DNA of 64,000 nt from Aulosira sp. ZfuVER01. Its GTDB lineage: Bacteria; Cyanobacteriota; Cyanobacteriia; Cyanobacteriales; Nostocaceae. The notes beneath the pieces are model-generated. The model made no database searches. It was not told where the DNA came from and saw nothing but the letters and a program-made list of their open reading frames with translations. Both the position numbers and the translations under genes were made by a program. Of the stretch, positions 59,280 to 64,000 are shown piece by piece (position 1 is the first letter of the stretch; every line of letters begins with the position of its first letter). The stretch is from assembly GCA_034530615.2 (NCBI GenBank), contig JAVRCV020000016.1:23085-87084 (forward strand). The letters run 5' to 3'.

Positions 59280-60152
59280 TCACGCAACACAAAAAATCGG
59301 GGCAGGTTTTAAACCCACCCCGATTGCTTCTGATATATTCCGCCCAACTGCTGCGGCTACAGGCTTTAAACTATCAACCAAATTCACCATATCTTCTAAA
59401 GATAGTGCTTGACGTGCATCGGAAACAGATTTTTCTGGTTCGGGATGACACTCGATAATTAAGCCATCTGCTCCACAAGCAACAGCAGCCCTAGCCATAG
59501 GCGCTACTAATTCTCGTTTACCTACAGCATGGGATGGGTCTACAATCACAGGTAGATGAGTGATTTGCTTGAGGGCTGCTACAGCTCCTAAATCTAGTAC
59601 GTTGCGGGTGTAATTATCAAAGCTCCGAATGCCTCTTTCGCAAAGTACTACATGAGGATTACCGTGGCTCAAAATATATTCAGCTGCCATAACAAATTCT
59701 TCAATTGTCGCCGCCAAGCCGCGCTTGAGTAGTATTGGCTTGTTGGCTTGTCCTAAGGCTTTGAGCAAGTCGAAGTTTTGCATATTACGGCTACCAATTT
59801 GCAGCATATCAGCATAGGCAGCAACTGTTTCAATTTGGGCAATCGACATCACTTCAGTTACAACTGGGAGATTGTAGCGCGATCGCACTGCCGCCAAAAT
59901 TTCTAGTCCTTCTTCTCCCATGCCTTGGAAAGCGTAAGGAGATGTGCGAGGTTTGTAAACACCGCCACGCAAGGCTTGTACGGGTGCAGCAGCTAAGTTT
60001 TGGGCGACTCTCTCCATTTGCTCTAAGCTTTCGACAGTGCAGGGGCCACCAATAATTACTATTTCTTTTCCCCCAAAGCTGACAGTTGGTGAGAGTTTAA
60101 CGATTGTTTGGTGACTAGGATGAGATTGGCCAGCGAGTTGAGCATTAATCAT
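59280..60152 (-). CDS. aroF: DAHP synthase (type I-beta, catalytic barrel only)
   Basis: [47 protein letters not shown]. Confidence 0.93.
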
Positions 60153-60198
60153 AGTGAGATTCTCCTTGTATTGAGGTTATGAGGGTGAGGTTGATAAC

Positions 60199-60232
60199 AA
60201 AAAAGCCCGGAATCTCATCTTGAGTTCCGGGC
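60199..60232 (-). terminator. Attenuator terminator 2 (aroF-proximal)
   Basis: GCCCGGAACTCAAGATGAGATTCCGGGC followed by TTTTTT on the minus strand. Confidence 0.85.
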
Positions 60233-60260
60233 GCGTTCTAAATCATCGGCATGACGCTAT

Positions 60261-60323
60261 TTACCCGGAACTTGCTCTGGGCCAAAAGTAAAAACCGTAA
60301 AACCAACTACCGAAAGAGCTCAT
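60261..60323 (-). CDS. Leader peptide 2, MSSFGSWFYGFYFWPRASSG
   Basis: AGGAG RBS; 7 aromatic codons within 11 consecutive positions; followed by terminator. Confidence 0.85.
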   Translation of the reverse strand: MSSFGSWFYGFYFWPRASSG

Positions 60324-60340
60324 GACGATGAAATTCTCCT

Positions 60341-60375
60341 AAAAACACAAAAACCGCAGAGTTGGCTCTGCGGTT
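60341..60375 (-). terminator. Attenuator terminator 1
   Basis: AACCGCAGAG-CCAA-CTCTGCGGTT followed by TTTGTGTTTTT on the minus strand. Confidence 0.85.
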
Positions 60376-60405
60376 CACCGGGCGGTTTCCATTAGGAAAC
60401 TGAAT

Positions 60406-60462
60406 TCACCGCCGGTGAACCGCCTTAAACCAAAAATAAAAATAAGATTTGCTGTTGAACAT
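60406..60462 (-). CDS. Leader peptide 1, MFNSKSYFYFWFKAVHRR
   Basis: Six consecutive aromatic codons YFYFWF; followed by antiterminator/terminator sequences. Confidence 0.85.
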   Translation of the reverse strand: MFNSKSYFYFWFKAVHRR

Positions 60463-60753
60463 TTGAATGCTGCGCAAGTAGATAAATTTGATGTAAACCT
60501 TATATATAGTTCACCATAACAGACGCAGGGGGTAGCGTCAATAGCTCCATAACTCTTAAAAAAGGGTTAAACTCAGTACTATTGCGCCTGTTAAGACGTT
60601 TTCCTGACTTATAACCGTAGCACTTATAGAAACTTACAAGTATTTTTGGGTCATGGGTAAAGGGATATTGATGAACTCTAAAAAATCGGACAATTCATCA
60701 TTATCGTCAAATTCCGCAGCGGCCCAATCACCTTATTAGAGCCACTAGGTTGT

Positions 60754-61239
60754 ATGATGCCTCGTTCTAAAATTTTAGCTACATCTTTCGACTATCACGG
60801 AGTGTACCCTTGCCCAGTCTGTCGTGTTGGTAAGATTACTCACATGCCATTAATGGAAGCTATGGCTTGTGACTTCTGCCAAGAGATTTTTACTGTCAAT
60901 CTAGAACAACAGCAAATCAAAATGCCTTCTCGGCAACCGCCCCTAGTTTGGTGTTGGAATGGTTTTAGTTGGACAGAAGCTCAGTTAGAAGGAGTGGAGC
61001 TTGGTTGGGGCTATGGGTTAGCAGCAATTGCTTTTATAGTTCTGCCCACAACTTTGATTGGCATTGTGGCTTACAATTTTCCCCCATCTCCACATGAACT
61101 TATTACCTGGTTGCCATATTTCTGGACTATATTAACTTTTTTGTTACATTTAGCAATTATTGTTTGGATTTTTATTGAGGTTTATCAAATTCCTGTTGCA
61201 GCATATTTAAGAGCGATAAATCGATGGAGAAATGGATAG
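60754..61239 (+). CDS. Hypothetical protein with N-terminal CxxC..CxxC ribbon and two TM helices
   Basis: YPCPVCR..ACDFC then two hydrophobic segments. Confidence 0.8.
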   Translation: MMPRSKILATSFDYHGVYPCPVCRVGKITHMPLMEAMACDFCQEIFTVNLEQQQIKMPSRQPPLVWCWNGFSWTEAQLEGVELGWGYGLAAIAFIVLPTTLIGIVAYNFPPSPHELITWLPYFWTILTFLLHLAIIVWIFIEVYQIPVAAYLRAINRWRNG

Positions 61240-63763: not shown

Positions 63764-63808
63764 GGAAGCATATTTTGCGCAGGTGATTCTCCATCATTTT
63801 CAAGTTGA

Positions 63809-64000
63809 CAATTGAATTGCATCGGCCTGCAATTGAATTACATCGACCTGCAATTGAGTTGCATCGACCTGCAATTGAATTGTATCGACCTGCAATTGAA
63901 TTGTATCGACCTGCAATTGAATTACATCGACCTGCAATTGAGTTGCATCGACCTGCAATTGAGTTGCATCGACCTGCAATTGAGTTGCATCGACCTGCAA
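63809..64000. repeat. 21-bp tandem repeat, about 9 copies, running off the window end
   Basis: Unit CAATTGA(A/G)TT(G/A)(C/T)ATCGACCTG; minus-strand frame encodes LQVDATQ heptads with stop at 63800. Confidence 0.92.

Follow-up and report, generated by a model that had tools for sequence, protein, structure and literature searches.

We find that aroF of Aulosira sp. ZfuVER01 is preceded by two short leader ORFs (uORF1 and uORF2), each with a cluster of Phe, Tyr and Trp codons, followed by an intrinsic terminator and overlapped by a helix that competes with that terminator. Our best reading of this arrangement is classical ribosome-mediated transcription attenuation, doubled ahead of a single gene, to which we assign a probability of about 0.82 from comparative sequence analysis. 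A preliminary description had proposed this geometry, and it fits the anatomy of the region, its conservation, the covariation of its helices, the promoter upstream, and the start site and terminated RNA recorded for Nostoc sp. PCC 7120. The window analysed is a stretch of 64,000 nucleotides (contig JAVRCV020000016.1, positions 23,085 to 87,084), and all coordinates refer to it. The elements are as follows.

60513-60541, minus strand: putative sigma70-type promoter (-35 at 60541-60536, extended -10 at 60518-60513), with a start site expected at about 60506.
60406-60462, minus strand: leader ORF 1 (uORF1), 18 amino acids, aromatic cluster with Trp then Phe last, Shine-Dalgarno sequence absent.
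60404-60420, minus strand: candidate small hairpin of unit 1 (60420-60415 with 60409-60404), spanning the stop codon; a possible pause or protector hairpin.
60370-60423, minus strand: antiterminator 1 (60423-60412 with 60381-60370, plus an inner-helix extension).
60341-60375, minus strand: intrinsic terminator 1 (stem 60373-60354) with its U-tract from 60353.
60336-60340, minus strand: AGGAG ribosome-binding site of uORF2, 12 nt 5' of the ATG, a long spacing.
60261-60323, minus strand: leader ORF 2 (uORF2), 20 amino acids, two Trp codons in the aromatic cluster.
60263-60282, minus strand: candidate 1:2 protector hairpin of unit 2, within the final codons of leader 2.
60223-60272, minus strand: antiterminator 2 (60272-60264 with 60231-60223).
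60199-60232, minus strand: intrinsic terminator 2 (stem 60232-60205) with its U-tract (60204-60199).
59280-60152, minus strand: aroF, a 290-aa type I-beta DAHP synthase, with an AGGAG ribosome-binding site (60166-60162) 9 nt before the gene.

The anatomy given in the preliminary description is reproduced. Both leaders translate as claimed, the 12-nt strand of unit 1 is the exact complement of a segment overlapping the 5' arm of terminator 1, the 9-nt strand of unit 2 is complementary to a segment within the 5' arm of terminator 2, both AGGAG motifs are present, and the gene downstream is a type I-beta DAHP synthase (TIGR01361, above cut-off). One detail changes, in that the first RNA 3' end would be expected near 60347-60346 and not at 60341. 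A simple terminator scan picked up terminator 1 and missed terminator 2, which has an interrupted stem. A point overlooked earlier is that the units are unlike each other in ribosome-binding site, Trp content and default fold. A common origin of the units was considered: they have a common motif by eye, but a covariance model of unit 1 scores 5 bits on unit 2, in the terminator part only. The start region of uORF2 pairs with the spacer in the fold of the window, a pairing absent from the consensus fold. Between 58000 and 63000 Rfam models gave one chance-level match (19.5 bits against a cut-off of 53.5, E 1.8), and no Rfam model of a T-box, a described riboswitch or a leader matched there. A translational attenuator acting by occlusion of the ribosome-binding site was considered and rejected, as the distance from the end of terminator 2 to the start of aroF is 18-603 nt in 106 loci, and the terminator has a U-tract.

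In the proposed mechanism, a single transcript starting at about 60506 would cross the two attenuators in series ahead of aroF. When charged tRNA-Phe, tRNA-Tyr and tRNA-Trp are ample, the ribosome would reach the stop codon of the leader and hide the antiterminator's 5' strand; the terminator hairpin would then form and RNA polymerase would stop, leaving terminated RNAs of about 160 nt (terminator 1) and 310 nt (terminator 2). In aromatic shortage the ribosome would stall in the aromatic cluster, the antiterminator would form first and transcription would continue. Each leader may sense all three amino acids. Because read-through is required at both terminators, basal expression would be the product of two leaks and the induction could be larger; leader translation, stalling, the amino-acid response and this multiplicative gain are all inferred. 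Cyanobacteria are a lineage without Rho (PMC13613805), and transcription-translation coupling cannot be taken for granted (PMC7858274); attenuation needs the ribosome to act with RNA polymerase within about 60 nt, so that the element could serve as a direct in vivo test of coupling.

The conserved aromatic codons and stem covariation that the preliminary description had named as a check are both found upstream of aroF (131 loci and 47-row alignments, respectively). The alignments contain 47 non-redundant rows per unit (L105 in A2 as a partial row). Cells changed on both sides of a helix number 31 for antiterminator 1, 17 for terminator 1, 13 for antiterminator 2 and 25 for terminator 2; none of 500 shuffles was as high for any helix and slid controls were all lower, but the loci are related and not independent samples, so that these shuffles and the locus counts given throughout overstate independence. 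Counting pairs with two-sided change is less decisive, as 246, 8, 19 and 11 of 500 shuffles (same helix order) reached the observed count. One base that takes part in both unit-1 helices is G instead of A in 6 of the 47 rows with both pairings retained, by a compensating change in terminator 1 and a U-G wobble in antiterminator 1.

Alternative structures were folded at 30 C, and to model the ribosome all RNA 5' of position +12, counted from the P-site codon, was masked; this footprint is assumed, and the position of the switch is contingent on it. The 47 rows for unit 1 include three loci with apparently misplaced landmarks (L106, L092, L026), and the 41 rows for unit 2 leave out L105 (mis-extracted), L092, L099, L106, L082 and L054. 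In unit 1 the terminator base formed in 5-10 of 47 rows as long as the A site had not moved past the core Trp codon, and in 44 of 47 once it had. In unit 2, nascent RNA formed the antiterminator in 39-41 of 41 rows up to Trp+2 and in none of 41 at the stop codon. When the full transcript was folded at equilibrium with the ribosome at or before the core Trp, terminator 2 still won in 20-28 of 41 rows, and in this window its value for the stalled full transcript was 0.84-0.97. As terminator 2 often wins despite the stall, read-through in unit 2 would have to be kinetic, by trapping. The switch foreseen in the preliminary description is thus reproduced by the folding model for unit 1, which flips just past the core Trp, and for unit 2 in the nascent-RNA model only. 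In those terms, both units have an intrinsic terminator between leader and gene and a mutually exclusive antiterminator that is free on stalling and covered at the stop codon.

Small hairpins on the last leader codons fold in 131 of 134 loci (unit 1) and 126 of 128 (unit 2). The unit-1 hairpin has 98.9% of cells paired and zero two-sided changes, and the unit-2 hairpin has weak covariation. A pyrimidine-G step lies 10-14 nt past these hairpins in 128 of 134 loci for unit 1 and 123 of 128 for unit 2, compared with a 43% background. Judged by the polymerase pause consensus, hairpin and step together resemble a pause signal, and a candidate pause position in the window is near 60391.

The differences between the two units lead us to speculate, tentatively, that they form an asymmetric AND gate and are not copies of one another, although we consider this rather doubtful. 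Without a ribosome, terminator 1 folds in 14 of 47 rows and terminator 2 in 39 of 41. Unit 1, with no Shine-Dalgarno sequence and one Trp, would read through when the ribosome is absent; unit 2, often with a Shine-Dalgarno sequence and with two Trp in 94 of 131 loci, would terminate when untranslated and open only with a loaded, stalled ribosome. If so, the pair would distinguish a real shortage of aromatic amino acids from conditions such as darkness or nitrogen stress, in which translation as a whole shuts down. It would also be a natural reporter of the concert between ribosome and RNA polymerase in cyanobacteria.

Evidence for the start of the transcript comes from promoter patterns and from PCC 7120. 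The promoter pattern is present in 122 of 134 unit-1 loci compared with 24 of 134 in a control stretch; in the window taken alone the match is weak, with 7 such sites where 6.5 are expected. None of 130 loci has a promoter-like site between unit 1 and aroF, by the same pattern, which places the promoter 5' of the leader and leaves the interval up to the gene without one. The preliminary description had regarded transcription starting 3' of the leaders as fatal to its claim; the upstream promoter and the published PCC 7120 start site speak against this. The supplement of PMC4734099 (row 173) lists for Nostoc sp. PCC 7120 a 150-nt orphan sRNA, 3692672f, with a start site from dRNA-seq and a 3' end set at a predicted terminator. 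This RNA is homologous to unit 1 over its whole course, beginning at the start site and ending in terminator 1, and is near-identical by eye to one of our loci (L023), the PCC 7120 start site lying 7 nt after the aligned -10 of that locus, again by eye. All 14 RNAs tested in PMC4734099 had the predicted size, the Northern blot of 3692672f being unshown in the paper. Its reverse probe primer falls in the unit-2 spacer, so that longer products would be detectable, and PMC4734099 reports none. That paper lists 3692672f as a potentially regulatory, conserved sRNA, and the strings 'DAHP', 'aromatic', 'leader' and 'attenuat' do not occur in its main text. For PCC 7120, a terminated leader RNA is therefore already on record, without an interpretation as an attenuator.

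Two further RNA observations concern the same region. Supplementary file 6 of PMC4734099 (row 174) gives an antisense RNA of low count that spans unit 2 and terminator 1 and is homologous to 60375-60180 of the window (plus strand); the entry records homologs in 25 genomes and is annotated as 'putative peptide according to RNAcode'. Among public RNA runs searched with locus L109, six had a share of 0.04; in the four examined, the leader was covered by contigs of a relative in two runs, both from one study, and the rest was repeat noise. As contigs show no ends, they have no bearing on attenuation.

In wild-type PCC 7120 the start-site reads of 3692672f rose from 285 to 1402 after nitrogen step-down (PMC4734099). 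Such a response would suit leaders that sense general translation (ribosome loading, nitrogen stress, tRNA modification), or that act by a TnaC-like ligand-dependent arrest, and not the charging of aromatic tRNAs; wobble-read TTT codons predominate, and a stall at the stop codon would yield the same polarity. However, start-site reads measure initiation and not read-through, RNA pairing accounts for the C-termini of the peptides, and the control codons correspond to the end products of the pathway of the downstream enzyme. We regard this explanation as improbable.

The coding signal of the leaders was assessed with the reading frame set by an RNA landmark before starts and stops were counted. 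For unit 1, 124 of 131 loci have an ATG in frame where it is expected, and none has one in either of the other frames; the stop falls at the same codon in 128 of 131, and Phe, Tyr and Trp all occur in 126 of 131. For unit 2, the ATG is in frame in 119 of 131 loci (3 and 2 off-frame), a stop lies seven codons past the cluster in 115 of 131, and all three aromatics occur in 125 of 131. In both units, then, a biosynthetic gene is preceded by a short leader ORF whose start, frame and stop are conserved, and the leader has clustered codons for the end products of the DAHP synthase pathway. The degenerate loci are few, uORF2 lacking its start in 4 of 131 and the near stop in 2. Several variants could be used as natural mutants: for uORF2, L031 is without a start and L054, L078 and L092 have the stop lost or shifted, and for uORF1 the stop comes earlier in L096 and L100.

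Leader 1 uses TTT for 345 of its 361 Phe codons (16 are TTC), compared with 75% TTT genome-wide and 31% in aroF, a bias that points to a nucleotide constraint beyond coding needs. Separately, the coding region of aroF and its homologs favours TTC and TAC (458:207 and 449:232), and the genome and leader 1 favour TTT and TAT. The strong TTT bias, together with Phe/Tyr swaps that outnumber synonymous changes at three leader-1 codons and a Shine-Dalgarno-like site in only 1 of 130 loci for uORF1 (56 of 131 for uORF2), would be expected if the switch were real but operated by a protein, or by a pause of RNA polymerase at a U-rich tract, with the aromatic codons a by-product of the U-rich motif. This is very improbable in view of the in-frame ATG at a fixed distance, the stop at a fixed position just past the antiterminator strand, the retention of the Trp codon in 130 of 131 loci (unit 1) and 131 of 131 (unit 2), and the use of both TAC and TAT in the leaders.

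The combination of features is rare. The 8.0-Mb genome contains 86,328 ORFs that begin with ATG and are 10-35 codons long, of which only two pass a filter for at least five aromatic residues in eight, Phe, Tyr and Trp all present, and a terminator next, and these are uORF1 and uORF2. A scan blind to amino acids reduced 70,235 short ORFs to 346 with a terminator and to 9 with a competing complement of at least 7 nt, among which uORF1 ranks first and uORF2 is retained. Of those 9 in this genome, only uORF1 and uORF2 have both an aromatic cluster and a nearby gene.

Among relatives, loci were selected by protein, as the best 80 of 568 from GTDB and 30 of 51 short-type orthologs among 300 sampled genomes; once 3 duplicates had been dropped, together with 2 loci truncated where a contig ends, 105 informative loci were left, with L097 (missed by the pattern) scored by inspection. 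Both units stand before the short aroF in 101 of these 105, two having unit 1 only and two unit 2 only. No conserved downstream operon partner of aroF was found in 101 loci. The one-unit loci before a short aroF are L097, L099, L101, L104 and L134; the five single-unit loci fall in three separate places among tandem loci in a quick tree of 94 proteins, and are likely the result of secondary loss. Named carriers include Nostocaceae, Scytonemataceae, Microcoleaceae, Leptolyngbyaceae and Hydrococcaceae. Viral contigs gave 3 pattern matches, none with aroF, which we take as chance. In non-photosynthetic relatives, none of the 20 best-matching loci, all with full-length enzymes, has a leader with terminator; the one Trp-rich ORF among them sits inside an upstream gene.

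Some leaders have dual roles, and the conservation of these peptides could likewise suggest that the short RNAs or hydrophobic peptides act mainly in trans, as an sRNA or as small membrane proteins, with the position before aroF secondary. This is the least probable of the alternatives, even with a conserved sRNA in the catalogue of PMC4734099: the unit-1 model has a single match in each of 53 genomes, out of 151 from the class, 30 of 30 fetched matches lie directly before a short aroF (29 of 30 with unit 2, L125 scored by inspection), covarying antiterminators would be useless in trans, and aroF has no promoter-like site of its own.

The regulated copy is itself informative, a point the preliminary description had overlooked, as it is the paralog without a regulatory domain. 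The match of the window's aroF protein to PRK08673 begins at model position 70, and the N-terminal ferredoxin-like domain (PF18152) is found in the second, 351-aa DAHP synthase of the genome and not in the 290-aa protein. This domain mediates feedback inhibition. In the same quick tree short and full-length enzymes separate with support 100, and no leader with terminator was found before 11 full-length DAHP synthase paralogs. The short enzyme may therefore be a spare, feedback-insensitive DAHP synthase, for which, in the absence of the regulatory domain, the amount rather than the activity would be controlled. If true, the two enzymes would divide their labour, the housekeeping DAHP synthase being regulated through its domain and the spare through its expression.

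Three other features of the window were observed. Within the final 15 codons of aroF (59325-59280, minus strand) there is a terminator-like hairpin that stops about 15 nt short of the stop codon, and a similar hairpin is found in 49 of 134 loci, in the forms of about 290 aa. If it terminates, the mRNA would be without a stop codon; the U-tract is imperfect in many copies, so it may instead be a stability hairpin or be gated by the ribosome. A divergent 161-aa ORF (60754-61239, plus strand) has a Cys-rich N-terminal part and hydrophobic segments, with zero matches in Pfam and NCBIfam. A short-period tandem repeat at about 63790-64000, after a FecCD permease gene, has several frames open and runs off the window end.

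A 2010 comparative survey (Lopatovskaya, Seliverstov, Lyubetsky) reportedly predicted no such attenuators in cyanobacteria. Our literature search, in which subscription papers were thinly covered so that a prior prediction may exist, found no report of cyanobacterial leader-peptide attenuation, and the part examined of a table of putative tyrA attenuators in PMC1173090 contains no cyanobacterium. If our reading is true, the element represents a widespread attenuator family for cyanobacteria and explains the PCC 7120 orphan sRNA. It would also be a ready biosensor for aromatic amino acids, and the short enzyme a candidate feedback-free enzyme for engineering.

The element has every sequence-testable defining feature of the trpL/pheL/aroR type apart from the protector hairpin, for which there are candidates. 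The E. coli trpL and pheL attenuators share with it a leader ORF, control codons, and a mutually exclusive antiterminator and intrinsic terminator, but each is a single unit for one amino acid. According to the review PMC11802643, the DAHP synthase genes of E. coli are under TyrR/TrpR control. An aromatic leader before aroF is a known kind of element, proven in Corynebacterium and predicted in Acholeplasma. The Corynebacterium glutamicum aroR-aroF attenuator (Neshat et al. 2014, summarised in PMC11802643) also has a leader peptide with aromatic codons before DAHP synthase, where ribosome stalling leads to read-through; its single leader contains Phe-Tyr-Phe and no Trp and is insensitive to Tyr, whereas here, comparing by description, there are two leaders, Phe, Tyr and Trp occur in both, and the phylum is a different one. 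The uORFC-13-1 motif of Acholeplasma aroF is likewise a predicted Phe-containing uORF with a terminator, but it is single, predicted only, and of another phylum and consensus (PMC8632094). The closest parallel for two short-ORF attenuators in one leader is mgtM and mgtP of Salmonella mgtCBR, which sense different signals (ATP and proline) and which the authors called a singular example (PMC3641672); in the cyanobacterial element the same three amino acids appear in both units, before the entry enzyme of a biosynthetic pathway.
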